Shown here: one piece after another, positions 20,254 through 44,242 of the stretch
How the letters are laid out: each line of letters starts with the position of its first letter
Position numbering within the stretch: position 1 is the first letter of the stretch
DNA from: Dictyostelium discoideum
Taxonomy: Eukaryota
NCBI GenBank assembly: GCA_000004695.1
Contig: CM000151.3
Span: 800,001-864,000 of the forward strand
Direction: 5' to 3'
DNA: 64,000 nt
Notes under the pieces: model-generated
The model's input: the letters and a program-made list of their open reading frames with translations, nothing else
Databases searched by the model: none
Told to the model about the DNA's origin: nothing
Position numbers and translations under genes: made by a program

Positions 20254-21485
<1,232 letters not shown>

Positions 21486-21937: not shown

Positions 21938-23415
21938 ATAATAATAATAATTATATATGTATAAAACAAAAAAAATAAAATAAAATAAGATAATAAAAAA
22001 TAAAAACTAATGTTGATATCTTTTTTTAATTTTTTTAATTTTTTTTTTTTTGTACAAGATATTTTTCTATTTTCGAATATTAATTTTCATACTTTATAGG
22101 TTTTTTTTTTTTTTTTTTATATTTTTTTTTGGAAAAAAAATAAAATAATGATGCGAACAAACCAACTGATCGAGTTTTTTTTATTTTTTTTATTATTATT
22201 ATTAATTTAGGATTTATATAAATATAAATTTAATATACATATACTAGCCTTTCTATTTGCATAGTTGTAAAATAAAATATAAAAAAAAAAAAACAAAAGA
22301 AAAAAAAAAAACAAAAAAAAAAATAATAAAAAAAAAAAAAGAATGTTTTTTTTTTATTAAATTAAATAGTATGGAGGGTTGTTTGTGTTTGTGTTTTTTT
22401 TTTATTATTAATTGATAACCACACATTATTGTACAAAGATTGAAAGAACAAATTTAATTTTTTATTTTTTTTTATTTTAATTTATTTTTATTATTATTAT
22501 TTTTTTTTTTTTTTTTTTTTTTTTTTAAGTGCGCTATATATTTGTGTGGGTGAGTGAATGTATGTGTTTGCATCTCTTTATTTCTCATTTGAGAATAAAG
22601 GTGAGAACGAATTTTTGAAGTATTATTTATTTAAATTTTGATCACTTTTTTTTTTTTTTTTTTTTTTATAATATATTTTTAAAAAAACTTTAAAAAATTT
22701 ATATTCATTAATTTTATTATTATATCCTCCAGTATGATTTAATCATATAGGTTTTTTTTTTTGAATGAATGAATTTTTTTAATTACAATACCTTTTATCT
22801 TTATTTTTTTATTTTAGTTAATGTTCAAGACAACTAAAAATACAAATAAATATAATAAACTTTGAGGGATAAATATATATCGATGACTGAAAAGCAAAAA
22901 AAAAAAAAAAAAGCAAAAAAAAAAAAAAAAAAAATCTAAAAAAATAAAAAAAAAAAAAAAAAATTATTTTAATTTTTTTAAAAAAAAAATAATCAGTTTT
23001 GGTCTAACGGATCGTTCCAATTTTTTTATTTTTTTTTATTTTTTTTTTGATTATTATTTTTTCTTATTTTATTTTATTGTTTTTTTTTTTCTTTTCTCCT
23101 AAAAAATAATAAAAGAAGATGAGGGATTTGATTCGGAAAAAAAAAAAAAAAAAAACCAAAAAAAAAAAAAAAAAAAAATTTATTAAAAAAAGAAATCAAA
23201 ATATATATATTCTAAACATAAATATTATTTTATTATTTTATTATTATTATAATTATTATTATTTTTATTAACCTTTTTTAATTTTTTTTAATTATAATTT
23301 TTTTTTTTTTTTTTTTTTTCTATTTTTTTTTTTTTTTGTATTTATTTTTATTTTATTTAATTTTTTTTTTTTTTTAATTTTTTTCCATATGATTGGTTAT
23401 TTATTTAGGGTTAGT

Positions 23416-23447
<32 letters not shown>

Positions 23448-24908
23448 GAAAAAAAAAAAAAATAAATAAATAAATAAATGTGGTTTTAGTGTAAATATCA
23501 TAAAAATCAAATAAAATCACAAAAAGCAATATTTTGCTCAATACAAAAATAAAAATATGTGCAGAAAAAAAAAAAAAATAAATAAAATAAAATAAAATAA
23601 AATAATAAAAATAAAATAATAAAAATAAAATAAAAAAATAAAAATAAAATAAATTAAATCTAAAGAGTTTATAAAGGAAATATTTTATTGTGTATGTGTG
23701 AGGTATATGGATATCTATTCTTGTCTGATGATAATGATTTGTAAAAATTATTTATTTATTTTTTATTCAATCAATAAAATATTCTTCAATTTGTAAATAA
23801 AATAAAATAATAAACCAAATTGCATTTACCTTTTTTTAAAAAAATTTATTTTTATTTTTTATTTTTTTTTAAATTTTTTTTTTAATTTTTTTTTGTCTTA
23901 TATATATAAACTTTTCTTTCTTTTTTCTTTACCTTCTCACTATTTTAAAATAAAAATAAAAATAAAAATAAAAATAAAAATAAAAATAAAAATAAAAATA
24001 AAAATAAAAAATGTTTTTACTAAAAAATCAGGACAACTATTTTTTGTTTTTTTTTTATTTTTAATTTTTTTTTTTTTTTATAATTGTCAGAAAGTCAGCG
24101 CTCACAAACTTAAAATAGAAAGAAACATTCTGGCGGCAATCGTTAAAAATATTATTTTTTTTTTTTTTTTTTTTTATGTACGTGGTTTTTTAACGACAAC
24201 AGGAAACCTTTTAAACAAAATAATTTTATAATAAAAAAAAAAAAAAAAATAAAAGAACCCAAAAGTGGAAAATTCAATCCTCCAAATTTTTTTTTTCTCT
24301 TTTTATTAATTATTAAAATATTTTTATTTATACAAAAATATAAGTAATTTTGGAAATATTTGAATTTAAAATTAAGAATGTGTGAACATTCCAAGTTATA
24401 TTTGGTTATTAATAGTTTGGACCATAATTTATAAAATCGTGATGGAAAAATGACAATTTTAAAACATTAAATATTTCATATTTTAAAAAGAAAAAAAAAA
24501 AAAAGAATAAAAATAAATAAATAAATTGTTCAATGGAATAAATCAAAAAAGATATTTTGTGAAACTAATAAAAATTACCCCCACTCGCAAATGCGTTTAT
24601 TAAAATAGTTTTTTTAATTATTTTTTTATTTTTTTTTTTTCCATTATTTTTTTTATTATTTTTTTTTTTTTGTTTTATTTTGTTTTATTTTGTTATATAA
24701 TTTTTGTTTTTTTTTTTTTTATTTGGTTGAACTCAATTTGGTAATAAAGTTTAAAATATATTTTATCAATGTCAAATTACACAAACTATTTTTCATTTAA
24801 TTTAAAAAACAAAAAAAAAAATAAAAATAAAAATAAAAAAAAATAAAAAAAAAAAAGAAAAAAATAAAATTTTTTTTTTTTATTTTTTTTTTTATTTTTA
24901 TTTTTTTA

Positions 24909-24961
<53 letters not shown>

Positions 24962-25176
24962 TTGGTACCATCAAAAATTTATAATTCTTTTTTTGTTTTA
25001 TATTATTTTAATTTTTATTCTATTTAATTTTTTTTTTTTAAAAAACAAAATTTTTTCTTCATTTAATCTTTTTTTTTTATTATTTATTTATATAAAAATA
25101 TTTTATATAAATAAGGAAAAAAAAAAATAAAAAATAAAAAATAAAAATAATAATATAATAATAATAAATTTTATTC

Positions 25177-25211
<35 letters not shown>

Positions 25212-25353
25212 ATATTTAATAAATATATAAAAATCCAACCTATTGTTTTTTTTTTTTTTTTTTTTCAATTTATTTTTTTATTCTTTTTTTTTTTTTATTT
25301 TAAAAAAAAATATATATATATTGTATATAAAATATAAATATATTTTTTAAATA

Positions 25354-27451
25354 ATGGAGGAAGATGAAGAAACAAAAAGATTAAATGAACGTCGTCGTAT
25401 TAGAGAAGAGAGAAGAAAGAAACAAGAAGAGGATGACGCAAAAGAGGACCAAGAGAGAAAAGCAAGAGAGGAAGAACGTAAAGTTCGTAAAGAAGCAAGA
25501 ACCAAAGAAAGAGGTGAGCGTGAAGCACAACAAAAGAAAGAATTGGAAGAATATATAAAGAGAACTGAAGAAGAACGTAGACAACGTAGGGAAGAACGTG
25601 AGAAACGTAGGATAGAAGAAGAGAAACAACAAAAAGAGGATGAGGAAAAGAGAAAGAGACAACAAGAAGAACGTGAAAGAAAACGTCGTGAAGAAGATGA
25701 AGAAAAGAGAAAGAAAATCAAAGAGTTGGAGGAATCACGTAGGAAGGTGTTAAAAGAGTTGGAAGAGGATGAGAATAGTTCACAAGTCGATTCGATTCTA
25801 TCACAAAAGAAGAGACGTTTAATTGCACGTCAAAAGATTGAATCAATTCTAGCATCTGTCGACCCAAGCAACTCACAATACGATCAAACCCAACCAACCC
25901 CAATTAAAATAGTATCATTATTATTAACGGATGAATTGAAGGAGGAGGTCATTGATTTGGTGGCAAGTGGTGGATTTAGATCATTGGTGGATTATATGTC
26001 GCAACCAGCATCCATCTCAACCATGGCAGAGTATTTGGTTGATATCAATGTGGGTGCCACCATTTTCGCTTCAAAACCAGAGTTCTTAAATGGTACAGCC
26101 TCGTTAGAGTTAAAGAATTCCTTAGCGAGAATGCAAGCTTCCTACGAAATCTTAAAGGGTGGAATTCAAACCATGGCAAAGATTATCACTGATCCTTCAA
26201 ACTCGTTCATATTGGATATACTCTTCTCTATGATTTCAAATCCACCTCCTATTCCACTTACAAATATGCACATTTTCACAGACCTAGTATGTAGTTATAT
26301 GAGTCGTAAACCAGAATTACTCATTTACATTTGCAATAACAAGGATACAATCTTACCTTCATTGATGCAACATCTTTCAAATAGTGAAACTGTTGATTTA
26401 TTATTGAAAATGGCTGAAATCGAAATGACACAAAGTAATGAAACCACATCTAATAGCAGCAGTGGTGGTAGCGCAGCATCATCATTTTTTAGTTTATTTA
26501 CAGGTTCATCAAGTAGTAGTAGCAGTAGTAACAACAATAACAACAATAGTAATAATAAAGAGAAACCAAATTGGACAAATGATTTAACACCATATTTAAT
26601 TTTAAGAATTAATGAAATTAGTAATTTAGAGAATGTTATAGTTGATCAATTAGATTTAGAGATTGATAATATTCAAAGATTAATGTTTGAATTAGTAAAG
26701 AAATATCCAAAATCAAAAGTTGCTCATCATTTATGTGGTCAATCATTCTCTAATGCAGTTTTAAGAAATGGTTTTAAATTAGCATTGGTTCATCCTTACA
26801 CTTCACCATTCTCATCATCAATGTTATCATTAATTTGCACATTAGTAGATTCGTCAGTTACAATGACTCAGTCTTTAATTACAAATTCTTCATCATCTTC
26901 TTCATCATCATTATTATCGTCATCATCGTCCTCATCATCATTATTATCATCATCATCATCATCAAATCAAGATTTACCATCAGTTATAAATTTATTATTT
27001 AAACAAATCGTTATCATTGATGATATTAGTAATGGTGAAGATAATTCAAGAGAGTTATCACCAATAAAAGCAATCTCTGAAATTTTAACCATTAAAAAAG
27101 ATTCACAAGAGATATTTAGTATTGTACGTTTGAAATGTTTACATTTAATTAATTCATTGGTAAAAGCAAATATTTCAAAATTAGATCGTGAAATTTGGGA
27201 GAGTGGTATCTTAAAGAAATGTATTGATATCTTTTTCGAATATGAAACCAATAATGTCATCCATTGTATGATAGAAGGTATCTTAACACCATTAATTCAA
27301 CGTTGTCTTGGTAGTGATGATGAAGAATTTATGTGTCATTTATTAAAAGATTGTTCCTTTGTTTCAAGAGTTGTAAATATTTTAAGTGGTGGTAATAATA
27401 GTGAATTAAATCAAATTAATAATAGTAATAATAATAATAATGATAATAGTA

Positions 27452-27493
<42 letters not shown>

Positions 27494-29079
27494 TAAATGG
27501 TAGTTTAAGTGGAGCTAGTAAATTAAGTGCATTATTTGTAAATAGTAAAGATAATGATGTAGTTATAGTTGAACAACAAAAATCTGAACCAGTAATTGGT
27601 GCACCAGCTCCTGCAATGGGTTCATTATCAAGAGGTGGTGGTAAAAAGATAAGAAGAAAGGTATCTTTCTTTAGTACTGATGAAGATTCAACTTCAAATG
27701 CACAAGATGAAAATAATACTAGCAGTAATACAAATGGCGATGTTAAATTAGCAATTGGTGATTTATCAATGTTTCAACCACCAACTTCAACTCCAGCTCC
27801 AGCCACCTCAACTACTGAACAATCTTCCGATAAAAATTCTTTAGAAAATACAGTAGTTAGCTCAGAAAAGAGATTCTCTGCAACTTTAACTTCAACTTTC
27901 TCTATATCTTCATCCTCTTCTTCTTCAACATCTTCTACATCTTCTACATCAACTACTACAACAAAGATAAATGGCACCTCTAGTAGTAGTAGTAATAGTG
28001 GTAGCAGTAGTATTAGTAAAAAAGCAGAAAAAGAATTAAAGGAACAAGAGAAACAAAAAATAAAAGAGTTGATGGATACCTTAAAATCAAAACAATTAAC
28101 ACCAGATCAAGAAAAAGCAATTAAATCACAAATTAAGCAACTCAAGAAAGAAAAAAGACAAAAGAAAGAAGAAAAGAAATTAGCAAAAAGATTAAAAGAA
28201 AAAGAAAAAGAAAGTAAATCAAAATCATCAACATCAACATCATCATCTACTTCTTTAAAGAATAGTTCTGGTTCAGTAGTTTTACCAACATCAACAAACA
28301 AATTAAAATCGTCTTCATCAAACTCACCATCATCTTCACCAGTTTTAACATCAACCACTACATCCACATTAGCAGCAGCAACAACAACAACAACAACACC
28401 AACATCCACCACAGCACCAACCACAACCACAACAACAACAACAACAATGACAACAACAACAATTACTTCAACTTTATCAGATCAATCAAGTGATACAAGT
28501 AGTAATAGTGATAGTTGTTCAAATAGTGATGTTTCAAGTGAAATCTCAAAACTATCATTAAATGACAATTCTCAACCAATCGAGGCATCAGTTGAAAATA
28601 TTGAATCAATTGAAGAGCAAAGTGTAGTAGTAGTATATCATAATGAAGAATCGTCTAACAATGGTAGCAGTAATAATACCGAATGTAATAATAGTAAAAT
28701 AAATGATGAATCATCAACTAACACCCCAACCACCTCAACCACCACAGCAACAAAGAAGAAAGGAGTAAATCATAATGTTGGACATATTATATCACTATGT
28801 ATTGAAATTACCCATATCGTTAACAAGAGTAAAGGTCAATTGCTTAGAGATATTGTTGATGAATGTTGCCTATTCCAAGGTCAATGGGATGAAGTTGTTG
28901 TACCAAAATTACGTCAAGAAATATCATTTAGAAATATCAAACCAATTGGTACCGTTTCAATGCGTAAAGGTAGAAAGGGTGCTCCACCAACTCCATTTGC
29001 AAATGTTGAATCTTTCCAAAATATGGCAAATGGTGTTCCAATTCCTCCAACAAATCCTTCCTCAAAATTCTTTTTCTAA
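25354..29079 (+). CDS. SAPS-domain protein (SIT4/PP6 phosphatase-associated regulatory subunit-like) with an N-terminal E/R/K-rich charged helix and long S/T/N low-complexity tails. 1241 aa, single exon.
   Basis: Residues ~185-700 form a large alpha-helical conserved block. It includes IDIFFEYETNNVIHCMIEGILTPLIQRCL, which resembles the SAPS FFKYPWNNFLH-QVE motif. The first ~140 aa are almost purely E/R/K/Q (MEEDEETKRLNERRRIREERRKKQEED...). The C-terminal half is poly-S/T/N. Confidence 0.45.
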
Positions 29080-29536
29080 AAATATAATAATAATAATAAT
29101 ATAATAAAAAAACAAAACAAAAAACAAAAACAAAAATATAATAAACAAAAAAGAAAAAAAAAAAAAAAAGAAAAAAAAAAAGAAAAAAAAATATTAAAAA
29201 AAAAGATCTATATGGCAAAGAAATAAAAAAAAAAAAAAAAAAAAAAAAGAAAAACAAAAACTAACAAAAAAAAAATAGAAAAATAAACTAAATAAACATA
29301 TTTGAAAATTAAAAAAACTTATTTCTTTCTTTTCTTTCTTGATTTTATTATTTTTTTTTTGTTAGTTTTTGTTTTCTTTTTTTTTTTTTTCTTTTTTTCT
29401 TTTTTTTTTTTATTTCTTTACCATATAGATCTTGATTTTATTATTTTTTTTTTTATTTTTTTATTTTTATTATTTTTTTTTTTTTTTTTTGTTTATTAAT
29501 TTACATGTATAAAAAAAAGATAGCAAGAATGCAAGA

Positions 29537-29967
29537 TTATTCACCCAAAAATTTAGTTGATATTTGATCTATAATATCATAAGAATCTTTCCAAATTTCA
29601 GATCCATCATCTTCATTTTTATGTTCCTCTAAAAATTCACTAAATTGAACTAAAAAAGCAGTTACTCTGGAAACTGAATCTATTATCATTGTTTTATTTT
29701 CATCTAAAATTTCAATTTGTTTCTTTACATCATATATATCTTTAGTTTCATCTGCTTTAAATCTTTCAACATTTTCAATTTGTAATTGTTCTTCTTTTTT
29801 ATAAAGCATATAATCTTTTTCTAATCTATTAATGAAAGGGGGTTTATTTATAATTTTATTTATAATTTTATTTATAATTTTATTTATTATTGTTAATTTT
29901 TAATTATTATTATTTTGAAAATAAAACCAAAAGTTAATAAATTACTTATGTGTAAGAAATAATTATT

Positions 29968-30002
<35 letters not shown>

Positions 30003-30065
30003 CAAATAATACCTTTTTAGTGCATCAATTTTAATTTTTAAACTTCTTTTTGTGTCCAAAACCAT
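29537..30065 (-). CDS. Tubulin-specific chaperone A (TBCA)-like protein. Exon 1 is 30013..30065; exon 2 is 29537..29825. 113 aa.
   Basis: MVLDTKRSLKIKIDALKR joins LEKDYMLYKKEEQLQIENVERFKADETKDIYDVKKQIEILDENKTMIIDSVSRV... across a GTATTA donor (30007-30012) and an aatag acceptor (29826-29827), phase 2. The pattern R-LKIK-(x)-KRL-K(D/E)-Y, then YD(I/V)KKQ-E(I/V)L-E...MIPD/IDS, matches the TBCA family. The length also matches (~110 aa). Confidence 0.55.
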
Positions 30066-30366
30066 TGTGTTTTATTCTTTGTTTTTATTTTTGTTTTTTA
30101 TTTTATTTTATTTTTTTTTTTTTTTTTTTTCACCCACAAAAATAGATTTTGAAAATGACAATTTAATTTTTTTTTTTTTTTATTATTTATTTTTTTTTTA
30201 CATTTCCACAAAAAAAAAATAAAAAATAAAAATTAAAAAAAAATAAAATTAAAAAAACGATTGTTTGTCGTCTTTTTATTTTTTTTATTTTTTTTTTTTA
30301 TTTCCAAAACATTTTCTTTTTTTTTTAATAAAATACAAATATAAAAATAAAATAATAAGAAAAAGA

Positions 30367-33093
30367 ATGGCAGATGAAGATGATGGATTACAATTAAATA
30401 TTTGTTATTTACAACGTGTACCTAAAAAAGAAATAAATTCAAAAGCAGAAGAGGAAGCCTACTTTAAAGAAAATATCAGTAATAATAATAACTTTACAAA
30501 TAATAGAGCATATAGAGAGAAAACAAACAAAAATGAAAATAATTTAAATAATAATAAGAACAACAACAATAACAACAATAATAATAAAACTTACAATAAC
30601 AACAATAGTAATAATAGTTACAATAATAATAATTACAATAATAACTCATTTAATAATAATAATAATAATAACTATAATAATAATAATAGCAATAATAATA
30701 ATAATTCAAATAATAATAATTTAAATAAAAAACCAACATTTTTAGAAAAGAAAATTCAACAAGAACAAAAACAAAAAGAATTAAAAGAATTAAAAGGACC
30801 ACAACATCATAGATATAGGAATCAAGAGAATGAAGAGTCAAATGCAATTGAATCAAATTCAAATAATTTTAAAGATAAATATAAGTTTGCAGAAAATAAA
30901 ACTAAAAAAGATGAATTTAATAGACCAATTTTAGAAACAATTGAAAGTAATATTAAAGTTGAAAAATCTGAAACATTCAGTTCAATGAATTGGGGTTCAT
31001 TACAATTATCTGAAACATTGGTAAGGAATTTAGTTGGACATATGAAACATGAAAAACCAACACATATTCAAGAGGCATCGATAACACCAATTTTAAAAGG
31101 TAATGATGCATTGGTTAAGGCACAAACTGGTAGTGGTAAAACTTTATCCTATTTAATACCAGTGGTGCAAAAATTAACCGAACAACGTGTTACAAGATCA
31201 GATGGTTGCTATTGTGTAATCATTACACCAACAAGAGAATTATCATCACAGATTTATGAAGAACTTCAAAAACTTTTAAAACCATTCTATTGGATCGTTC
31301 CGGGTATAATTATGGGTGGTGAGAATAGAAGTGCTGAAAAAGCACGTATACGTAAAGGTATAAATATTTTAGTTGCAACACCTGGTAGATTATTAGATCA
31401 TTTACAAAATACTCAATCATTTCCAACTGATAATATTAAATGGTGTATTTTGGATGAAGCTGATAAATTATTGGATTTAGGTTTTGAAAAGGATGTTACC
31501 ACTATCATTAATTTATTAGATTCAAAAAAGAGAACAATGAAATTCAAAAGACAAAATATTTTAGTTTCTGCTACTCTTAGTGAAGGTATTTCAAGATTGG
31601 CTTCATTATCATTAACAAGTCCAGTTTACATTGGTTTGGATTCAAAAGTATTAGAAAAAGGTGAAAATCCATTCCAAGCTGCTGAAAAAGAAATGCTTCA
31701 AGCTCCAAAACAATTGGATCAATTTTATGTTGAAGTTGAATCAAAAGAACGTCTAACTTCTTTAATAGCCTTTATTAGATGGAAAACTTCAAATATTACA
31801 ATTGATAAAGGCGATGTTGCCTCTGGTAATAGTTCAGCAAATTCAAAAATGATTGTTTTCTTTTCATCATGTGATTCAGTCGATTTTCATCATTATATGT
31901 TTAGTAATATGAAAATGGATAAAGAGAGAGGTGTAAAAAGAACAAAGAAAGAACAAATTAAACAAGATAAATTAATTCAACAACATAAACAAAAGAATTC
32001 AAAAATTTTCCAAACTGGTAATGAAAGTGATGATGAAGAAAGTGATAATGATGATAGTGACGATAGTGATTCAAATAATTCAGATTCAGAAACTGATGAA
32101 GAAAAAGAAATTGAAAAACAAATTAAAGAGGCAACATCAAATCCAAATTATAGGGTAAAAACATCAGTTTTTTCAGTACCAATTTTTAAACTTCATGGTG
32201 AATTAGATCAACAAACTAGAACTAAAACATTTTTTGATTTTAAAAATTCACCAAATGGTATTTTATTAACTACCGATGTTTCAGCAAGAGGTTTAGATTT
32301 ACCATCGGTAAATTGGATCGTTCAATATGATCCATGTTCCGATACAAAAGATTATATTCATAGAATTGGTAGAACTGCTCGTTTAGGTAATCAAGGTTGT
32401 TCATTATTATTCCTTTTACCAAGTGAAAAGAAGTATATTGATCATTTGGCTAAATTTAATGTCTCTGTTAAAGAAATGAAAGTTACAACTATTCTTCAAA
32501 GTTTATTCTACACAAGTGATGGTCAATTGAAAAAAACTTCAAAATCTTCACAATTGGAATCACAAGTACACGATTTACAATTACTATTTGAAAGATTTTT
32601 AATTTATGATTCAAAAGCAAAGGAAATGGCAAGATGTGCTTATCAATCTTTCCTTAGATCTTATGCAACTCATAAAGCTGATGTTAAATCAATATTTCAT
32701 ATATCTTATTTACATTTAGGTCATGTTTCAAAGAGTTTTGCACTAAGAGAAACTCCAACAGAATTAAATAAAATGTCTGCTGGTATTAAAGGTGCTAAAG
32801 CGGCTAAAAAAGGTGATGAAGATACACTCCAAAAACAAACTGCTGATTTTAAAATGAAAAATTATAAATCTGTAAATGAATTCTCTGATGGTTTAAATGA
32901 TCAACCTTTACAAAGAGCAAATTTCCATTATGAATCTGCTAGTGGTGTCATTCACAATATCTATCAACGTCATTTCAATAGAAACGAAAGAGATGAAGCT
33001 GATAAAAACTCAAATCCAAAAGAAATCAAAGAAAAGAAAAGAAGATTATATGATAAAAAAATTGAATCAAATAAAAAATTTAAATCAAAATAA
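30367..33093 (+). CDS. DEAD-box ATP-dependent RNA helicase (DDX31/Dbp7-like). 908 aa from the ATG at 30367.
   Basis: Helicase motifs: Q-region ...PTHIQEASITPIL, I AQTGSGKT, Ia PTRELSSQ, II ILDEADKLLDLGF, III LVSATLS, V TTDVSARGLDLP, VI HRIGRTARLGNQG. There is an N-terminal N-rich low-complexity region and an acidic D/E/S insertion in the C-terminal RecA domain. The ORF-track start at 30265 lies in a poly-T promoter run (MSSFYFFYFFF) and is rejected. Confidence 0.9.
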   Translation: MADEDDGLQLNICYLQRVPKKEINSKAEEEAYFKENISNNNNFTNNRAYREKTNKNENNLNNNKNNNNNNNNNKTYNNNNSNNSYNNNNYNNNSFNNNNNNNYNNNNSNNNNNSNNNNLNKKPTFLEKKIQQEQKQKELKELKGPQHHRYRNQENEESNAIESNSNNFKDKYKFAENKTKKDEFNRPILETIESNIKVEKSETFSSMNWGSLQLSETLVRNLVGHMKHEKPTHIQEASITPILKGNDALVKAQTGSGKTLSYLIPVVQKLTEQRVTRSDGCYCVIITPTRELSSQIYEELQKLLKPFYWIVPGIIMGGENRSAEKARIRKGINILVATPGRLLDHLQNTQSFPTDNIKWCILDEADKLLDLGFEKDVTTIINLLDSKKRTMKFKRQNILVSATLSEGISRLASLSLTSPVYIGLDSKVLEKGENPFQAAEKEMLQAPKQLDQFYVEVESKERLTSLIAFIRWKTSNITIDKGDVASGNSSANSKMIVFFSSCDSVDFHHYMFSNMKMDKERGVKRTKKEQIKQDKLIQQHKQKNSKIFQTGNESDDEESDNDDSDDSDSNNSDSETDEEKEIEKQIKEATSNPNYRVKTSVFSVPIFKLHGELDQQTRTKTFFDFKNSPNGILLTTDVSARGLDLPSVNWIVQYDPCSDTKDYIHRIGRTARLGNQGCSLLFLLPSEKKYIDHLAKFNVSVKEMKVTTILQSLFYTSDGQLKKTSKSSQLESQVHDLQLLFERFLIYDSKAKEMARCAYQSFLRSYATHKADVKSIFHISYLHLGHVSKSFALRETPTELNKMSAGIKGAKAAKKGDEDTLQKQTADFKMKNYKSVNEFSDGLNDQPLQRANFHYESASGVIHNIYQRHFNRNERDEADKNSNPKEIKEKKRRLYDKKIESNKKFKSK

Positions 33094-33212
33094 ATAATCT
33101 TTTTAAAAAAATAAATATATATTATCCATTTTTTTTTTTTTTTTTTTAAAAAGTAATAATTTTGTAAATTGTTTATTATTTTTTTCTAAATACTATTATA
33201 CATTTAATTAAT

Positions 33213-33567
33213 TTAATTACAACCACAACTTGGATGTAAAATTGGATTTGTAATGGTACCAACTGTGTTTAAAACTGATCCCACAATTACACCAGTACCA
33301 ATTAAAACTCCACCAACAAGATTTCCTACTACATTTCCCAAAGTTGGTCCACCACATGGGCTATATTGAATTGAGTTTAATGATTGACTAGATGATGGTG
33401 ATGATGATGAGAATGAAACATTTTTTGATTTTGTAATTGATTTAACATTACCAATTGATGAGATTGAAGCTATAATAAATTAATATTAATATTTATAATT
33501 TTAAAAAATAAACAATTTAAAAACTATATTTTTTTAAATTTTATTATAAATTACCTAAGATTGTCAT
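33213..33567 (-). CDS. HssA/B-like (hssA/2C/7E family) small Gly/Ser-rich protein, divergent copy A. Exon 1 is 33555..33567; exon 2 is 33213..33469.
   Basis: ATGACAATCTTAG|GTAATT (MTIL-G), then an acceptor tattatag. The product is [89 protein letters not shown]. This matches the family layout of a 5-codon first exon, [10 protein letters not shown], a C/G-rich core, and a C-terminal CGC motif. Confidence 0.7.
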
Positions 33568-34238
33568 TTTTAGTTTTTAGTTTTTTTTTTTTATTATTTT
33601 TAAAAAAAAAATTATTTATTTATAGTAAAATAAAATCATATGTTTTTTTTTTTTTTTTTAACTTGTTTGGATAATAAATGATTTCATTTTTTTGATTAAT
33701 ATTAATCAATACAGATTTATTGTTTGAGTTTTAATTGTATGAAATACCAAAAAAAGTAAAAGTTAATCTTTGAAAATGAGATTTTCAAAAAAAAACAAAA
33801 GGATTATAATAAAATAATCTATTTTTTTTTTATTAAAAAGGATAAAAATATTTTTTGGAAAAATGAAAATGATTTGGTGTGTTTAAATCTATAAAAAATT
33901 AATTGCCTTTTTGCAAATGAAAAAATTTTAAATAAAAAAAAAAAAAATAACACAGATTAAAAATTAAATATTTAAATCTGATTTTAATTTGTTAAACCCT
34001 TTTTTAAAATTATTGACTTTTTCTGTTGATTGTTATAATGATAATTGAATGATTACAAAAGTTTATATTAAAACTTAAGATTTTCTTATTCATTTTCATA
34101 TCCTTTTTTTCTTTAAAAATATTAAATTTTAATATTACTCTAATATTTTGAATTTGTTTTGATAAAAATCAATATATTTAAATATATTAATTTTTTTAAA
34201 AGTCAAGTAACATGTAAAGATAAACAAATTATTTTAAA

Positions 34239-34277
<39 letters not shown>

Positions 34278-34355
34278 AATTAATTTAATTTTTACAGTTT
34301 ATTGAATTATTTTTAGTATTTGTTTTAATCTTTTAATTTAAATAATTTTACAGTT

Positions 34356-34685
34356 TTAATGGCAACCACAGTTTGGACCACTTAATAAACCACCAACAAC
34401 ACCATTGACAGTACCAACAATAATACCAGTTCCGACAAGTACACCACCTACGAGATTACCAACAGTACCAATTAATGGACTACCACCACCGCAGCCACCA
34501 CATTGTATTGAATTTGATGATTGTAATGATGAGTTTGATAATGATGAAAAATTATTTGATTTTGAAATTGATTTAACATTACCAATTCATGAGATTGAGG
34601 CTATTTAAAAATAATATAAAATAATTAATTTTAATATTATTTAATGTATATATATATATATATAAAACATACCTAAGATTGTCAT
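34356..34685 (-). pseudogene. HssA/B-like copy B. It has a premature in-frame TGA in codon 9 and a 12-nt in-frame deletion. Exon 1 is 34673..34685; exon 2 is 34356..34600.
   Basis: Exon 1 ATGACAATCTTAG|GTATGT is intact. Exon 2 begins CCTCAATCTCATGAATTGG, which in phase 1 reads A S I S stop. The plus strand has attCatgag where the other copies have attGatgag. Exon 2 also lacks the GTTGGAACTGTC segment. Confidence 0.6.
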
Positions 34686-34837
34686 TTTTAATTTTGTTAA
34701 TTGGAAATTAATTTTTTGATTTAATGATTATAAAATAAAAAAAAAAAAAACCTTTTATATCAAATTTTTTTAAACAAAAATTATTTATTTTTATTTGTTT
34801 TTAATTTATCTTACAAAAAATAAAAATAATAATTAAC

Positions 34838-35037
34838 TATCAATTAAGAAATAATGTGTTAATGGGGGTAATTATTGTGTGTTAATTAATCAACCGAATC
34901 CACCAAGGTTTTGATATGTATAAACTATTAAGTTAATACTTCATATAAATTTTTTTTTTTAAAATTTATATTGTTTCAGTTTAATTGTTCAAACACACAA
35001 TTAACCCCTCATTAACACATTATTTCCTAATTGATAG
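34838..35037. repeat. ~200-bp hairpin element with ~47-bp imperfect terminal inverted repeats (CTATCAATTARGAAATAATGTGTTARTGGGGGTAA...TTAACCCCWCATTAACACATTATTTCCTAATTGATAG). Copy 1, at the axis of hssl pair B/C.
   Basis: The left and right arms are reverse complements at ~90% identity. A ~110-bp spacer is itself partly palindromic. Further copies lie at 36840..37040, 40248..40446 and 42011..42208. A solo right-arm fragment lies at 52781..52806. Confidence 0.7.
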
Positions 35038-35389
35038 TAAATTTAAAGTATTTTTATTTATTTTTAAAGAATTTTTATTTATTCTACTCACACATCATAT
35101 TAAAATTTTTTTTTTTTTTTTTTTTTATTGTGTGGTATAATTTAATATATCTATTATACAAGAAAATAGTTTTTTGAAAATGAGATCTTTTGTGATCTAA
35201 ACAGTTAAATTTCTGAAAAAAAAGAATTTAATTATAATAATAAATTATTTGTTTTTTTTAAATTGATTTTTTTTTTTTTTAAATTTTTTTTTTTTCAAAA
35301 GTTCAAAATAAAAGTATAAATTCTAATTTTATTTCAATCATTATTTCATTAAATTAAACAATCAAAAAAATTTTAAATAAATTAATAAA

Positions 35390-35739
35390 ATGACACTCTT
35401 AGGTAAGTAATTAAATAATTAATTATAGTTTATTAAAAAATAATTTTATTAATTACTTATTTTTTAATATTAAAAAACTTAGCTTCAATCTCATCAATTG
35501 GTAATGTTAAATCAATTTCAAAATCAAATAATTTTTCATCATTATCAAACTCGTCATTACAATCATCAAACTCAATACAATGTGGTGGCTGCGGTGGTGG
35601 TAGTCCATTAATTGGTACTGTTGGTAATCTCGTCGGTGGTGTACTTGTCGGAACTGGTATTATTGTTGGTACTGTCATTGGAACTGTCAATGGTGTTGTT
35701 GGTGGTTTATTAAATGGACCAAACTGTGGATGTCATTAG
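35390..35739 (+). CDS. HssA/B-like copy C. Exons 35390..35402 and 35483..35739. 89 aa.
   Basis: ATGACACTCTTAG|GTAAGT with an acceptor aaaaaacttag. The product is [89 protein letters not shown]. The listed minus-strand ORF 35457..35690 is its antisense. Confidence 0.75.
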
Positions 35740-35934
35740 AACTGTAAAATTATTTAAATTATAATATTTTGTAATCAAAAAAGTTTTTTTATAATAAATA
35801 ACTTTGTATTAATAAAAAATTAAATCCAAAAAAGACTTAATGTTTCATTTTTTATTTTTTTATAATTTTTTTATTTTATTTTTACAATATTGTAAATTAC
35901 AAAAAGAGATTGATTATTTATACTTTTTTAAATT

Positions 35935-36190
35935 AATTACACTGACTTTCAACAGTTCTAGCATTTAGAATTAAAATATCAATTTGATATTACTTATAAA
36001 ATTTAATTAACCAATCTTTTAATTTACTTTGTCAGTAATATCAATCGATTCTACTTGAACACCAATATCCAAACATTCTTTTTTACTTCTTCTAATATTT
36101 CAATTTCCTTCCAGTCAAACCAAACCTCTTCCAGGATGACGCACCTGTGATAACTATTGCTTTTGGTGTCGGAAAATTTGTTTTCTTTTT
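35935..36190 (-). pseudogene. Decayed fragment of SDR exon 1 (remnant of a third SDR copy).
   Basis: The plus strand is alignable to 38650..38960 of SDR copy 1 (actgactttcaacagttc...cacctgtgataactattgcttttggtgtcggaaaatttgttttc). It has many substitutions and indels and no intact ORF. Confidence 0.6.
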
Positions 36191-36348
36191 TTATAATTTA
36201 AAAAACTTAATATTGTATAAAATAAAATATAAACAAATGAATTCAAAAATAATTTTTTTATTTTTAAATAATGAATTTAATTTTTACAGTTTATTGAATT
36301 ATTTTTAGTTTTTGTTTTATATCTATTAATTTAAATAATTTTACAGTT

Positions 36349-36688
36349 TTAATGGCAACCACAGTTTGGACCACTTAATAAACCACCAACAACACCATTG
36401 ACAGTTCCAACGACAGTACCAAGAATAATACCAGTTCCGACAAGTACACCACCTACGAGATTACCAACAGTACCAATTAATGGACTACCCCCACCGCAGC
36501 CACATTGAATTGAATTTGATGATTGTAATGACGAGTTTGATAATGATGAAAAATTATTTGATTTTGAAATTGATTTAACATTACCAATTGATGAGATTGA
36601 AGCTATTTAAAAATAATATAAAATAATTAATTTTTAATTATTTTGTGTATATATTTTTAGATTTTAAAGACATACCTAAGATTGTCAT
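36349..36688 (-). CDS. HssA/B-like copy D. Exon 1 is 36676..36688; exon 2 is 36349..36602. 88 aa (one-codon deletion).
   Basis: MTIL-G|GTATGT, acceptor ttttaaatag. Exon 2 encodes [84 protein letters not shown]. Confidence 0.75.
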
Positions 36689-36839
36689 TTTTTTAATATT
36701 GCTAATTGTAAATTTTAATAGTTTGATTTAATGATTTTTTTTTAAAATAAAAAAACCTTTTATATCAAATTTTTTAAAACAATAATTATTTTTTTTTATT
36801 TATTTTTAATTTATCTTACAAAATAATAATAATAATTAA

Positions 36840-37040
36840 CTATCAATTAGGAAATAATGTGTTAGTGGGGGTAAATATTGTGTGTTAATTAATCAACCGA
36901 ATCTACCGAAGTTTTTATATGTATAAACTATTGTGTTAGTTCTTCATATAAATTTTTTTTTTTAAAATTTATATTGTTTCAGTTTAATTGTTCAAACACA
37001 CAATTAACCCCACATTAACACATTATTTCCTATTTGATAG
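36840..37040. repeat. Hairpin IR element, copy 2 (axis of hssl pair D/E).
   Basis: Same arms as copy 1. Confidence 0.7.
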
Positions 37041-37374
37041 TAAATTTATATTATTATTATTTTTTTTTTTTTTTAGAAGTTTTATTTATTAACACATATT
37101 AATAATTTTTTTTTTTTTTGTGTGGTTTAATTTAGTATATCAATTATACAAGAAAATAATTTTTTGAAAATGAGATTTTTTGTGATTTAAACAGTTAAAT
37201 ATCTGAAAAAAAAAAGAATTTAATTATAAAAATAAATTATTTGTTTTTTTTTTAAATTAATTATATTTTTTAATTTTTTTTTTATTGAAAATAAAAGTAT
37301 AAATTCTAATTTTATTTTCAATCATTATTTCATTAAATCAAACAATCAAATAAACTTTAAAATAAATTAATAAA

Positions 37375-37721
37375 ATGACACTCTTAGGTAAATAATTAAA
37401 ATAAATTGTAGTTTATTAAAAAGTAATTTTATTAATTTATTTTATTTTATAAATTTAAAAAATTTAGCTTCAATCTCATCAATTGGTAATGTTAAATCAA
37501 TTTCAAAATCAAATAATTTTTCATCATTATCAAACTCATCATTACAATCATCAAACTCAATACAATGTGGTGGCTGCGGTGGTAGTCCATTAATTGGTAC
37601 TGTTGGTAATCTCGTAGGTGGTGTACTTGTCGGAACTGGTATTATTGTTGGTACTGTCGTTGGAACTGTCAATGGTGTTGTTGGTGGTTTATTAAGTGGT
37701 CCAAACTGTGGATGCCATTAA
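37375..37721 (+). CDS. HssA/B-like copy E. Exons 37375..37387 and 37468..37721. 88 aa.
   Basis: ATGACACTCTTAG|GTAAAT, acceptor aaaaaatttag. Same protein family. The minus-strand ORF 37442..37672 is the antisense artefact. Confidence 0.75.
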
Positions 37722-37871
37722 ATTTATTAAAATCGATAATGTTTTTTTATAATAAATAAATTTGTATAAATAAAAAATGAATTTCAAAAAAGACTTAACA
37801 TGTTCATTTTTATTATAACTATTTTTTTTTTTTTTTTTTACAATATTATAAATTACAAAAAAAAAGATTGA

Positions 37872-39063
37872 TTATTTATTATGAGTCTTAATTTTTTGAG
37901 AATTTAAATTTTTAACTGATGAGGAGGGACAATTTTCTCTTTTTGATTCATTTGTAGAATATCGAGAGTGATGAGAATAATGAGTTACTGGTTTCCTATA
38001 GTCTGGATATTTTGCAAGAGAATTTATAATAAAATTAGTGGCATCTCTTAAAGTTGGTGGAATTGTGGCAAAGAAATGAGATATACAATAAACTAAAGGT
38101 GGGCATGAAATTATTGCATCATTTCTACTAATACCATCTACAATGTATTTTGAAGCTTTGTCAGTTGTTATAGGTAGTAACATTGGTATATCTTTATAAT
38201 CCAAAGAATCAACTAATGGAGTATAAACAAAACCTGGTATTATTACTGAAACGCCAACACCTCTTGATGCTAAACCATTTCTAAGTATTAACCCAAATGA
38301 TTTTAGGTAACCTTTACTTGATGAATATCCTGCCATTGTATAATCAAAATATGGTGTAATACTTGACATCAAAACCAATTGACCAGATCCTCTTGATTCA
38401 AAGATTGGTACCATTGGTAAAACTGTATTCAAGGTTCCAATTACCTATAATAAATAATTTATTAATTAGTTTTAAAAGAATATCATTACTTTTTATATTT
38501 TTAAAATTATTTAAGATATTACATTTGTGTTTGTAACTGTTAATATTCTTTCAGTAAAATCTAATTCTTTTGGTAACATTGCTGGAATTTTTTTTTTAAA
38601 TATAAATAAATATATTAAGAAAACCAATTTTTTTTTTTTTAAAAAAGTAATTATACTGACTTTCAACAGTTCCAGCATTTGCAATTAAAATATCAATTTT
38701 ATATTTATTATCAAATTTAATTAACCAATCATATAATTTTTCTTTGTCAGTGACATCAATTGATTCAATTTCTACTTGAACACCAAGATCCAAACATTCT
38801 TTTTGAATTTCTTCTAATTTTTCAATGTTTCTTCCAGTTAAACCTAAAACCAAAGAATTATTGGTTTTTCTTTTTGCATATTCAAGTGCTATTCCTCTAC
38901 CAATACCAGATGATGCACCCGTGATAACTATTGCTTTTGGTGTTGGGAAATTTGTTTTCTTTTTTTTATAATTTAAAAAACCTAATATAGGATAAAATAT
39001 TAAAAGAATCATTGAACCAATTATATTGGTCAACAATAAAGATATATCAGTTAGCACTGCCAT
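37872..39063 (-). CDS. Membrane-anchored short-chain dehydrogenase/reductase (SDR), copy 1. Exons 38661..39063, 38523..38581, 37872..38444.
   Basis: N-terminal TM helix (LTDISLLLTNIIGSMILLIFYPILGFL). Rossmann motif ITGASSGIGRGIALEYAKRK. NAG motif ILIANAGTVE. Catalytic YSSSK in exon 3. The splice sites are GTCAGT (38655-38660) with ttccag (38582-38583), and GTAATA (38517-38522) with ttattatag (38445-38446). Phases 1/0 are consistent, and the same sites occur in copy 2. Confidence 0.8.
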
Positions 39064-39130
39064 TCTTATTATTAATTTTTTTTGAAAAATTTAAATTAAA
39101 AAAAAATTTAAATTAATAAAAAAAATTTAA

Positions 39131-39168
<38 letters not shown>

Positions 39169-39334
39169 TTAAAGTGTTAAAATTCTAAACCGTTTAAAAG
39201 AATGTTTAATTAATTAATTCAAAAACACCAAGAATAAAAATTGATTTACAATATTAAATTTTCATTTTTTAACAAATTTTTTTTATATTTTTTAAAAAAA
39301 ATACAAAACAGGAAGGTTGTCAAAACAGATCTAT

Positions 39335-39382
<48 letters not shown>

Positions 39383-39645
39383 TTTAATATAAAATTAAAT
39401 AATTAAATAAATCATTTTAAATCTAATTTTAATTTTAAAAACATTTTACAAAGATTAAAATCAGATTTAAAATAACTTTTTCTTTAGTTAATCAAATAAT
39501 AATTAAATAATTTCAAAAGTTTATATTTATACTTTTTTTTTTTATTCATTTTCATATTCACTTTTAATAAGATTATCATAAAAAATTCTGAATTGTTTTA
39601 ATGAAATAAATTTATTAAATATTTTAAAAAAATGAATTCAAAATT

Positions 39646-39680
<35 letters not shown>

Positions 39681-39760
39681 AATAATGAATTTAATTTTTA
39701 CAGTTTATTGAATTATTTTTAGTATTTTTTTATATCTATTAATATAAATAATTTTCAGTT

Positions 39761-40107
39761 CTAATGACATCCACAGTTTGGACCACTTAATAAACCACCA
39801 ACAACACCATTGACAGTTCCAACAACAGTACCAAGAATAATACCAGTTCCAACAAGTACTCCACCGACGAGATTACCTACGGTACCAATTAATGGACTAC
39901 CACCACCGCAGCCACATTGAATTGAATTTGATGATTGTAATGACGAGTTTGATAATGATGAAAAATTATTTGATTTTGAAATTGATTTAACATTACCAAT
40001 TGTTGAGATTGAAGCTAAGTTTTTAATATTAAAAAATAAATAATTAATAAAATTTTTTTTTAATAAACTACTATTAATTATTTTAATTACTTACCTAAGA
40101 GTGTCAT
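39761..40107 (-). CDS. HssA/B-like copy F. Exon 1 is 40095..40107; exon 2 is 39761..40014. It is plus-slot type (MTLL-G|GTAAGT) sitting in a minus-strand slot.
   Basis: The revcomp of cttacctaagagtgtcat gives ATGACACTCTTAG GTAAGT. Exon 2 encodes [84 protein letters not shown], then a TAG stop. Confidence 0.75.
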
Positions 40108-40247
40108 TTTATTAATTTATTTAGAGTATTTTGATTTAATGATTTATTAAAAAAAAAAAAAAAAAAAAAATCCTTTTATATCAAAATTTTTTATAACAAT
40201 AATAACAACGTTTATTTGCTTTTAATTTATCTTAATAATAGTAATTA

Positions 40248-40446
40248 ACTATCAATTAGGAAATAATGTGTTGGTGGGGGTAAATATTGTGTGTTAATTA
40301 ATCAACCGAATCTACCGAAGTTTTTATATGTATAAACTATCGTGTTAGTACTTCATATAAACTTTTTTTTTAAATTTATATGTTTCAGTTTAATTGTTCA
40401 AACACACAATTAACCCCACAATAACATATTATTTCCTAATTGATAG
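40248..40446. repeat. Hairpin IR element, copy 3 (axis of hssl pair F/G).
   Basis: Same arms as copy 1. Confidence 0.7.
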
Positions 40447-40760
40447 TAAATTTATATTATTATTATTATTTTTTAAAAAAAGTTTTATTTATTCTTCTCA
40501 CACACATTAAAAATAATAATATTTTTTTTTTTGTGAGGTTTAATTTAATATATCGATTATATAAGAAAATAATATTTTGAAAATAAGATTTTTTGTGATT
40601 TAAACAGTTAAATATCTGAAAAAAAGAATTTAATTATAATAATTAATTATTTGTTTTTTTTAATTTTTTTATTTTTTTTATTCAAAATAAAAGTATAAAT
40701 TCTAATTTTATTTTCAATCATTAAATTAAACAATCAAATAAACTCTAAATAAATTAATAA

Positions 40761-41112
40761 AATGACACTCTTAGGTAAGTAATTAAAATAATTAATAGTA
40801 GTTGATTAAAAAATAATTTTATTAATTATTTATTTTTTAATATTAAAAAACTTAGCTTCAATCTCAACAATTGGTAATGTTAAATCAATTTCAAAATCAA
40901 ATAATTTTTCATCATTATCAAACTCATCATTACAATCATCAAATTCAATTCAATGCGGTGGCTGCGGTGGTGGTAATTCATTAATTGGTACTGTTGGAGG
41001 TCTTGTTGGTGGTGTACTTGTTGGAACTGGTATTATTGTTGGTACTGTCATTGGAACTGTTAATGGTGTTGTTGGTGGTTTATTAAGTGGTCCAAGCTGT
41101 GGATGCCATTAA
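40761..41112 (+). CDS. HssA/B-like copy G. Exons 40761..40773 and 40856..41112.
   Basis: MTLL-G|GTAAGT with an acceptor aaaaaacttag. Exon 2 encodes [11 protein letters not shown]...[53 protein letters not shown]. Confidence 0.75.
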
Positions 41113-41274
41113 AATAATGTTTTTTAGAATAAATAAATTTGTATATATAAAAAATGAAATTCAAAAAATACCTAACACCTTTCTTTTTTTTTTTTTATTA
41201 TTTGTTTTTAATTTTTTTATATAATTACTAAAATTGAATTTTTTTTTTTTTTTTTTAAAAATTAATTACACTGA

Positions 41275-41400
41275 CTTCCAACTGTTCCAGTATTTGCAAT
41301 TGATCAATTTGATGTTTATCATCCAAATTTAATTAACTGATCTTTATATTTTCTTTGTCAGTGACATCATAAAAATTCTGAATTTGTAGTTATAAAATGT
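41275..41400 (-). pseudogene. Short decayed SDR exon-1 remnant (fourth ancestral copy).
   Basis: cactgacttccaactgttccagtatttgcaattga...tttctttgtcagtgacatc aligns to the 3' end of SDR exon 1 (38650..38760). Confidence 0.45.
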
Positions 41401-41528
41401 AACATGTAAAGATTAACAAATGAATTCAAAAATAATTTTTTTTTTTTTTTATTAATTTAATTTTTACAGTTTATTTGAATTATTTTTAGTATTTGTTATA
41501 TATTTTTTAATTTAAATAATTTTACATT

Positions 41529-41870
41529 TTAATGGCAACCACAGTTTGGACCACTTAATAAACCACCAACAACACCATTGACAGTTCCAACGACAGTACC
41601 AACAATAATACCAGTTCCTACAAGTACACCACCCACAAGATTACCAACAGTACCAATTAATGGACTACCACCACCACAGCCACCACATTGAATTGAATTT
41701 GATGATTGTAATGACGAGTTTGATAATGATGAAAAATTATTTGATTTTGAAATTGATTTAACATTACCAATTGATGAGATTGAAGCTATTTAATAATAAA
41801 ATAAAATAATTAATTTTTAATTATTTTGTGTATATTTTTTAGATTTTAAAGACATACCTAAGATTGTCAT
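41529..41870 (-). CDS. HssA/B-like copy H. Exon 1 is 41858..41870; exon 2 is 41529..41785.
   Basis: MTIL-G|GTATGT, acceptor aaatag, full-length 89-aa product ending ...GPNCGCH. Confidence 0.75.
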
Positions 41871-42010
41871 TTTTTTAATTTTGTTAATTGTAAATTTTAA
41901 TAGTTTGATTTAATGATTTTTTTAAAAAAAAAAAAACCTTTTATATCATAATTTTTAAATTTTTTTATTTGTTTTTAATTTATCTTACAAAAAAAAAAAA
42001 TAATAATAAA

Positions 42011-42208
42011 CTATCAATTAGGAAATTTATGTGTTAGTGGGGGTAAATATTGTGTTAATTAATCAACCGAATCTACCGAAGTTTTTATATGTATAAACTA
42101 TCGTGTTAGTACTTCATATAAACTTTTTTTTTAAATTTATATTGTTTCAGTTTAATTGTTCAAACACACAATTAACCTCACAATAACATATTATTTCCTA
42201 ATAGATAG
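42011..42208. repeat. Hairpin IR element, copy 4 (axis of hssl pair H/I).
   Basis: Same arms as copy 1. Confidence 0.7.
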
Positions 42209-42562
42209 TATATTTTTATTATTATTTTTTTTTTAAAAAAAGTTTTGTTTTTTCTTCTCACACATATCATATAAAAAATAATAATAATAATTTTTTTTTT
42301 TTTTTTGTGTGGTTTAATTTAATATATCGATTATACAAGAAAATCGTTTTTTGAAAATGAGATTTTTTGTGATTTAAACAGTTAAATATCTGAAAAAAAG
42401 AATTTAATTATAATAATTGATTATTTGTTTTTTTTTTTAAAATTAATTATATTATTTAATTTTTTTTTTTTATTCAAAATAAAAGTATAAATTCTAAATT
42501 TATTTTCAATCATTATTTCATTAAATCAAACAATCAAATAAACTTAAAAATAAATTAATAAA

Positions 42563-42912
42563 ATGACACTCTTAGGTAAATAATTATAATTAATTATAGT
42601 TTATTAAAAAAGTAATTTTATTAATTATTTTATTTTATAATATTAAAAAACTTAGCTTCAATCTCATCAATTGGTAATGTTAAATCAATTTCAAAATCAA
42701 ATAATTTTTCATCATTATCAAACTCATCATTACAATCATCAAATTCAATTCAATGTGGTGGCTGCGGTGGTGGTAGTCCATTAATTGGTACTGTTGGTAA
42801 TCTCGTCGGTGGAGTACTTGTTGGAACTGGTATTATTGTTGGTACTGTTGTTGGAACTGTCAATGGAGTTGTTGGAGGTTTATTAAGTGGTCCAAACTGT
42901 GGATGTCATTAA
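42563..42912 (+). CDS. HssA/B-like copy I. Exons 42563..42575 and 42656..42912.
   Basis: MTLL-G|GTAAAT, acceptor aaaaaacttag, 89-aa product. The minus ORF implied in the track is antisense. Confidence 0.75.
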
Positions 42913-43066
42913 AATAAATGTTTTTTTATAATAAATAGCTTTGTACAAATAAAAATGAAATTCAAAAAGATTTAATACATTTCTTTTTTTTTTATTATTT
43001 ATTTTTTTATTTTTTATTTTTACAATATTTATTTTTAAATTAGAAAAAATGATTAATTATTTATTA

Positions 43067-44242
43067 TTATGCCTCTTTATTTTTTTGAGAATTTGAATTC
43101 ATAGCTGGTGAGGAGGGACAATCCTCTCTTTTTGATTCATTTGTTGAATATTGAGAGTGATGAGAATAATGAGTTACTGGTTTACTATAATCTGGATATT
43201 TCAAAAGAGAATTTGAAATGAAATTAGTGGCATCTCTTAAAGTTGGTGGAATTGTGGCAACGAAATGAGATATACAATAAATTAAAGGTGGGAATGAAAT
43301 TATTGCATCATTTCTACTAATGCCATCGACAATGTATTTTGAAGCTTTGTCAGTTGTTATAGGTAGTAACATAGGTATATCCTTATAATCCAAAGAATCA
43401 ACTAATGGAGTATAAATAAAACCTGGTGTTATTACTGAAACGCCAACGCCTCTTGATGCTAAACCATTTCTAAGTATTAACCCAAATGATTTTATGTAAC
43501 CTTTACTTGATGAATATCCTGCCATTACATAATCAAAATATGGTGTAATACTTGACATCAAAACCAATTGACCAGATCCTCTTGATTCAAAGATTGGTAC
43601 CATTGGTAAAACTGTATTCAATGTTCCAATTACCTATAATAATTTATTAATTAGTTTTAAAAGAATATCGTTACTTTATATTCAAATTATTTAAGATATT
43701 ACATTTGTGTTTGCAACTGTTAATATTCTTTCAGTAAAATCTAATTCTTTTGGTAAAATTGCTATGAAAATTATTTTTTTTAAATAATTAATACAAGTAA
43801 ACCTTTTTTTTTTTTTTAAAAAAAATTATGTATACTGACTTTCAATAGTTCCAGCATTTGCAATTAAAATATCAATTTTATATTTATTGTCAAATTTAAT
43901 TAACCAATCATTTAATTTTTCTTTGTCAGTGACATCGATTGATTCAATTTCTACTTGAACACCAAGACCCAAACATTCTTTTTGAATTTCTTCTAATTTT
44001 TCAATGTTTCTTCCAGTTAAACCTAAAACCAAAGAGTTATTTTTTTTTCTTTTTGCATATTCAAGTGCTATTCCTCTACCAATACCAGATGATGCACCCG
44101 TGATAACTATTGCTTTTGGTGTTGGGAAATTTGTTTTCTTTTTTTTATAATTTAAAAAACCTAATATAGGATAAAATATTAATAGAATTATTGAACCAAT
44201 TATATTGGTCAACAATAATGATATATCAGTTAAGACTCCCAT
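43067..44242 (-). CDS. Membrane-anchored SDR, copy 2 (paralog of 37872..39063). Exons 43840..44242, 43703..43761, 43067..43633.
   Basis: Nearly identical to copy 1. It has the same TM N-terminus, TGASSGIGRG, the GTCAGT donor (43834-43839), the middle 59-nt exon (ILPKELDFTERILTVANTN), and YSSSKGYIKSFG in exon 3. Confidence 0.8.

Follow-up and report, generated by a model that had tools for sequence, protein, structure and literature searches.

A broken, unlisted partner of sigN6 in the Dictyostelium discoideum sigN Group 2 array is probably a young unprocessed pseudogene

The hssA/2C/7E family of Dictyostelium (Pfam PF05710, 'Coiled'), with about 96-100 genes in D. discoideum, includes the genes that Vicente et al. 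2008 (PMC2257962) described as sigN Group 2, namely sigN6, 7, 8, 9, 11, 12 and 14, whose products of 88-89 aa are ~95% identical; the more distant sigN10 (62-64% identical) shares with them ~10 kb of chromosome 2. In that account the Group 2 genes lie in inverted pairs with palindromic common promoters, the published pairings being 7/12, 9/14 and 8/11, with sigN6 left unpaired. Both the array and the family are already well described, and a nonsense pseudogene in a tandem family that evolves in concert is a textbook situation. The copy examined here (copy B) resembles CYP21A1P/CYP21A2 and the globin pseudogenes in having retained its promoter and intron, in the small size of its lesion and in the presence of converting paralogues nearby, but is far younger and cleaner than these, its lesions being a single nonsense change and a single in-frame deletion by slippage. 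It is not mentioned in the literature searchable here: it is absent from Table 1, Additional file 1 and the pairings of PMC2257962, where no sigN13 occurs and the words 'pseudogene' and 'stop codon' are not used.

The window, the whole 64-kb stretch of chromosome 2 that was analyzed, is very AT-rich (~20% GC) and contains exactly nine family members detectable by tblastn, here lettered A to I, each of which matches PF05710; an anchor-pattern match at 10686 lies inside pckA and is unrelated to the family. The array spans 9.7 kb (33213..42912). Directly upstream of sigN10 is a DDX31/Dbp7-like DEAD-box helicase gene (30265-33093, plus strand), which consists of one exon of 908 aa and has a CTE_SPB4 domain and long inserts rich in Asn. 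Published names were mapped onto the copies by protein lengths, intron sizes and the published pairings, the intron sizes given in PMC2257962 being uniformly one less than those measured here. Copy A (33213-33567, minus strand) is sigN10, and from Table 1 of PMC2257962 together with the pairings we infer that C, the intact divergent partner of copy B, is sigN6 (35390..35739, plus), D is sigN12 (36349-36688, minus), E is sigN7 (37375-37721, plus), F is sigN11 (39761-40107, minus), G is sigN8 (40762-41112, plus), H is sigN14 (41529-41870, minus) and I is sigN9 (42563-42912, plus). The supplements of PMC6198379 equate sigN7 with DDB_G0271818, and a table among them places the SDR gene DDB_G0271720 at chr2:843,067-844,242 (minus); adh_short ORFs lie on the minus strand of the window at precisely 43,067-44,242, which identifies the window as D. 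discoideum AX4 chr2:800,001-864,000. The coordinates in PMC2257962 are ~13.5 kb below those of the later PMC6198379 table. An exact look-up of the nine spliced proteins in a protein collection gave no match, and a homology search with them recovered a single relative, a D. dimigraforme protein of 62% identity, which is a lone family member at a non-syntenic locus. A metagenome scan for sigN-like exon-2 starts gave 0 matches. A homology search with the helicase, aimed at syntenic regions of sister species, gave matches of at most 68-74% identity, which covered a third of the protein.

Copy B (34356-34685, minus strand, from the ATG to the original TAA; chr2:834,356-834,685) is the unlisted, broken partner of sigN6, with which it forms a fourth head-to-head pair. 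Like the Group 2 genes it lies in the chromosome 2 cluster, in a divergent pair served by a common palindromic promoter, and it occupies the position expected of the missing sigN6 partner. Its layout is likewise that of the Group 2 family: the sequence-only reading had called exon 1 and the splice signals intact, and indeed exon 1 (34673..34685, minus) is a 13-nt ORF, ATGACAATCTTAG, the same as in A, D and H, followed by a 72-nt GT...AG intron (34601..34672, minus; GTATGT...AAATAG with a (TA)8 run) and by an exon 2 that extends over 245 nt to the original TAA (34356..34600, minus) and is 94-98% identical to exon 2 of copies C-I. The eight Group 2-type copies fall into a minus type (B, D, F, H) and a plus type (C, E, G, I), and the intron of copy B is of the minus type, with 87% identity to that of D and 84% to that of H. 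When codon 9 is read as Ser, the translation matches PF05710 end to end (residues 1-84, E = 1.2e-24, 87.4 bits against a cut-off of 21.4 bits) and shows the features of the family, with an N-terminal half rich in Ser, a hydrophobic C-terminal half rich in Gly and Val, and CGC at the end. Copy B differs from the Group 2 genes in a stop at codon 9 and four codons fewer, and from the hssA/2C/7E family at large in its broken ORF, transcript activity having been reported for hssA itself.

The premature TGA at codon 9 that had been proposed for this copy can be read directly from the minus strand (34587..34589, read 34589-34587; TCA to TGA by a change at 34588). Exon 2 opens CC TCA ATC TCA TGA, and the peptide ends after the eight residues M-T-I-L-A-S-I-S. 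On the plus strand, base 34588 is C in copy B and G in 8/8 of the other copies, and a 17-mer carrying the C occurs in copy B only. The further claim that all other copies read attGatgag stands for the G itself but not for the exact string, which is present in six of them (TCA, Ser); F and G carry attGTtgag (ACA, Thr) at the codon-9 site. Copy B has one additional private change in its exon, a synonymous GCC at codon 5 (34599, minus), where the others have GCT.

The second reported lesion, a 12-nt in-frame deletion, is also real. Copies C-I contain two tandem 12-nt units, G/CTTGGTACTGT(C/T) followed by (G/A)TTGGAACTGT(C/T), which encode xGTV-xGTV; at the corresponding junction (34404..34418, minus) copy B has a single unit, GTTGGTACTGTC, followed by AAT, and so has four codons fewer with the frame kept. 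The exact 12 nt that are missing are not uniquely placeable, ACTGTC being common to both units; the exact string GTTGGAACTGTC is found in D, E, F, H and I, with C and G carrying ATTGGAACTGT(C/T). At this repeat copy A is too divergent for base-level alignment, but its protein is full length in this stretch, which indicates that the loss is derived in copy B. Even with readthrough of the TGA the ORF of copy B would comprise 85 codons, short of the uninterrupted 87-89 codons of the family. By itself the loss may not be disabling, given that 3-nt length variants occur in the intact copies D, E and F.

Both lesions were then compared with a second assembly, GCA_054883475.1, in which the locus (L002, on the 3.6-Mb contig JBTAPE010000001.1) was found by an exact match to the single-exon DEAD-box helicase (window 30367-33090). 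It is collinear with window positions 20,318-43,114 and contains all nine copies in the same order; across 29,001-43,114 it shows 0 substitutions and six homopolymer-length differences. The sequence-only reading had named a G at the altered position in another assembly as the mark of a sequencing error; the second assembly has C there too, and throughout copy B it agrees with the reference at every base: the 12-nt gap, the TGA, the GCC at codon 5 and the (TA)8 run of the intron are all present. Elsewhere it differs from the reference in homopolymer lengths, repeat tracts and ~12 single bases, and its contig coordinates are offset by ~18 kb, which together indicate that it is a separate assembly and not a copy of the reference. 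With 0 substitutions in 14 kb it appears to represent the same or a nearly identical strain lineage, and the comparison accordingly bears on base-calling and assembly error, not on natural populations. The stop and the 12-nt loss are thus both real and private to copy B in two assemblies. Window 22699-25449 differs from L002 2374-5091 at ~12 single bases, almost all of them changes to A or T beside homopolymers, and in many homopolymer lengths, with the differences concentrated in AT-rich spacers; their probable source is noise in the sequencing or assembly of one of the two, not strain divergence. A (TGA)n/(TCA)n tract at ~20260-21200, read on the minus strand as ~300 consecutive serines, also differs in length and interruptions between the two assemblies.

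We next consider the sequences that surround the broken frame. The bidirectional intergenic promoter common to copies B and C (34686..35389) aligns with the D-E, F-G and H-I spacers at a mean column identity of 89%. Within it lies a 54-nt inverted repeat (34815-34868 and 35006-35059, 81% complementary) that bears G/C-rich boxes (TGTGTTAATGGGGGTAA... and ...TTAACCCCTCATTAACACA) and corresponds to the promoter palindrome that Vicente et al. 2008 (PMC2257962) reported, with its putative GBF-type sites; the repeat is fully conserved beside copy B and has equivalents in the three other spacers. In an alignment of the four bidirectional spacers, the G/C-rich boxes and a TATA-like element, CCTTTTATATC (34751-34761), are all conserved on the copy B side. 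The 340-nt upstream region of copy B shares 87-92% identity with its counterparts in D, F and H, and the copy B intron, promoter and 3' flank are homologous to theirs, as expected of an unprocessed pseudogene. All the cis-signals for transcription and splicing of copy B are intact, and it is probably still transcribed from the promoter common to sigN6 into an mRNA with an early stop. The promoter region analyzed for sigN6 in PMC2257962 would have crossed the unrecognized copy B.

Divergence within the array places these lesions in their evolutionary setting. Among the intact copies (n=7) mean dN is 0.019 and mean dS 0.132, and the resulting dN/dS of ~0.14 indicates that the protein is under purifying selection. 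Exon-2 dS is practically the same between the two types (0.133) as within them (0.131), whereas identity between and within types is 55-62% versus 87-94% in the promoters and 69-77% versus 84-97% in the introns. This absence from exon 2 of the type signal that the flanks have kept indicates gene conversion that would be confined to the coding exon. What looks like a visible conversion or recombination tract between inverted paralogues is found in F (the inferred sigN11) at window 40015-40150: this gene lies on the minus strand and has a minus-type distal promoter and 3' flank, but its proximal 5' region, its exon 1 (MTLL) and its 80-nt intron (92-95% identity with those of C and G) are of the plus type. 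The array seems to have grown in larger steps as well. The block D-E-SDR' is ~90% identical over 2.9 kb to the block H-I-SDR, which argues for a larger segmental duplication and not the duplication of pairs only; the SDR in question is DDB_G0271720 (43067-44242, minus; chr2:843,067-844,242; recognized by its adh_short ORFs and listed in the supplementary table of PMC6198379), and its paralogue lies inside the array between E and F (window ~37872-39063, minus). The Group 2 knockout interval published in PMC2257962 (9.6 kb, in older assembly coordinates) would also have removed this inner SDR copy.

Against this background copy B does not stand out by its divergence. It has two private substitutions each in the promoter, intron, exon 2 and 3' flank, numbers no higher than those of intact copies (G has seven in exon 2), and no private amino-acid change beyond the stop and the gap; relative to D it shows Sd = 5 and Nd = 0. 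There is thus no excess of private or nonsynonymous changes of the kind that relaxed constraint would leave, a pattern that either gene conversion or a very recent origin could produce. Its variable sites form a mosaic of D-like and E-like states, and no transfer of its lesion to the neighboring copies was seen here.

Taking these observations together, we consider copy B very likely to be a real pseudogene of the sigN Group 2/hssA-2C-7E family, young and of the unprocessed (duplicated) kind, or a null allele. The earlier suggestion of recent pseudogenization in a homogenizing array is supported both by the counts of private changes and by the contrast between dS and the flanks. A single TCA-to-TGA transversion at codon 9 cuts the product to eight residues and, separately, slippage or unequal exchange between the 12-nt units would have removed VGTV from the hydrophobic Gly-rich segment. 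The loss would have been tolerated through the high redundancy of the family, and the pristine look of the copy may reflect a recent lesion, exon-limited conversion among the eight Group 2 copies that overwrote other changes, or both.

Several lines of evidence bear on how readily such a null copy might arise and persist. In copies A and C-I, 12-14 of the 88-89 codons are TCA, and a stop results from 6.1-6.7% of the single-base changes possible in these genes, as against 4.2% under a baseline of uniform codon usage. The eight copies together have 17 private exon-2 substitutions, among which such stop-prone codons lead one to expect about one nonsense change, provided that a single copy evolves almost neutrally. 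A deletion of the entire Group 2 region produced no aggregation or developmental defect (PMC2257962), and development was also normal in six strains that each had one family gene knocked out (PMC8554618). As for the age of the lesions, D. discoideum has a base-substitution rate of 2.47e-11 per site per generation and frequent repeat slippage (PMC7466956), of which the 12-nt loss is a typical product. At this rate two private substitutions in ~330 bp are far too many for laboratory culture; it is very unlikely that the point changes of copy B arose there, and the wild progenitor most likely already carried the lesions. The word 'recent' is nonetheless inseparable here from 'old but continually converted', as conversion could keep an older pseudogene looking young.

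The alternative that fares best is a sub-case of the pseudogene explanation and does not contradict it, namely that the null allele of copy B occurs only in the NC4/AX laboratory lineage, or segregates as a rare variant, and that the gene is intact in other wild isolates. The decay of copy B is limited to the stop, the slippage deletion and a single synonymous change, and the two genomes compared are essentially identical in this region, both of which leave room for such an allele; the low mutation rate speaks against an origin in laboratory culture, though not against natural polymorphism. We entertain this version as a serious possibility, if one that falls short of an even chance.

A second alternative is that copy B is dead as a protein gene yet functional as a transcript, so that the stop is not disabling in the relevant sense. 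A frame-shifted construct of hssA, the founding member of the family, still suppressed the STATa-partial phenotype (PMC6198379), which implies that a gene of this family may keep some function after its ORF is lost, and copy B has kept its promoter, intron and 3' flank. Such intact cis-signals are equally expected of a very young pseudogene or under gene conversion, however, and both the dN/dS of the intact Group 2 copies and the disruption of mounds by antibodies to a Group 2 peptide (PMC2257962) point to a role at the protein level; the Rfam scan of the region (see below) yielded only sub-threshold chance matches. We judge a transcript function improbable, and give an equally small chance to the specific idea that the copy B transcript, in the manner of frame-shifted hssA, would act in prestalk development via the promoter common to sigN6. 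Were it true, selection could not see the nonsense codon, and some of the sigN/hssA family would work as RNA.

Still less probable is that the TGA, the deletion or both are reference errors or a misassembly of near-identical repeats, with the real gene intact. The array exons are 93-98% identical, and there is a precedent in the sigN2 gene model, which was corrected after the region was re-sequenced by Vicente et al. (PMC2257962). As against this, the separately assembled GCA_054883475.1 is identical across all of copy B, which makes a reference sequencing error very unlikely, and a 12-nt loss is not typical of base-calling.

Lastly, we examined whether the stop could be bypassed. The mature mRNA of copy B contains no in-frame ATG 3' of the TGA, and each alternative AG acceptor yields an ORF of at most 34 aa; the sole in-frame alternative acceptor sits in a GC-richer exon context common to D and E as well. 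An Rfam scan of 33,000-36,000 found no match to SECIS at E up to 10, and its sub-threshold matches to SNORA8 and snoZ5 inside exon 2 were set aside as chance. The stop context, TCA TGA ATT, is accompanied by neither a SECIS nor a known readthrough signal, and no sequence feature rescues translation of copy B. Decoding of the TGA as selenocysteine or by programmed readthrough, to give a full 85-aa protein, has a negligible probability, for although the frame beyond it is otherwise open to the normal TAA and Dictyostelium has selenoprotein machinery, an open downstream frame is expected after any recent nonsense mutation, 8/8 paralogues have Ser or Thr at this site and never Cys or Sec, TGA-A is a strong termination context, and the SECIS search was without a match. 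On the opposite strand, a mechanical ORF call gives a 67-aa antisense ORF with a TTG start (34405-34608, plus) in copy B only, the start context being made by the deletion junction and the frame kept open by the C at 34588. No antisense ORF of at least 40 aa exists in the equivalent stretch of the intact copies D and H, and the ORF is absent from the gene calls on record for any assembly; it is most likely meaningless.

The significance of copy B is modest and the outcome an ordinary one, since the family knockouts show redundancy. It nevertheless adds a ninth, broken member to the published eight-gene cluster and explains the apparent lack of a partner for sigN6. For practical purposes, its specific k-mers, namely GCCTCAATCTCATGAATTGG for the stop (versus GC[CT]TCAATCTCATCAATTGG for the unbroken state, read in the unique intron context of copy B) and ATTGTTGGTACTGTCAATGG for the deletion junction, can be masked or tracked in sigN expression counts and in knockout or guide RNA design. 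In evolutionary terms, copy B represents a clean nonsense allele within an array whose coding exons are homogenized by gene conversion. The same conversion could eventually mend its stop or spread it, and across D. discoideum strains the lesion might serve as a natural marker of conversion tracts and of whether the stop is being repaired or is spreading.
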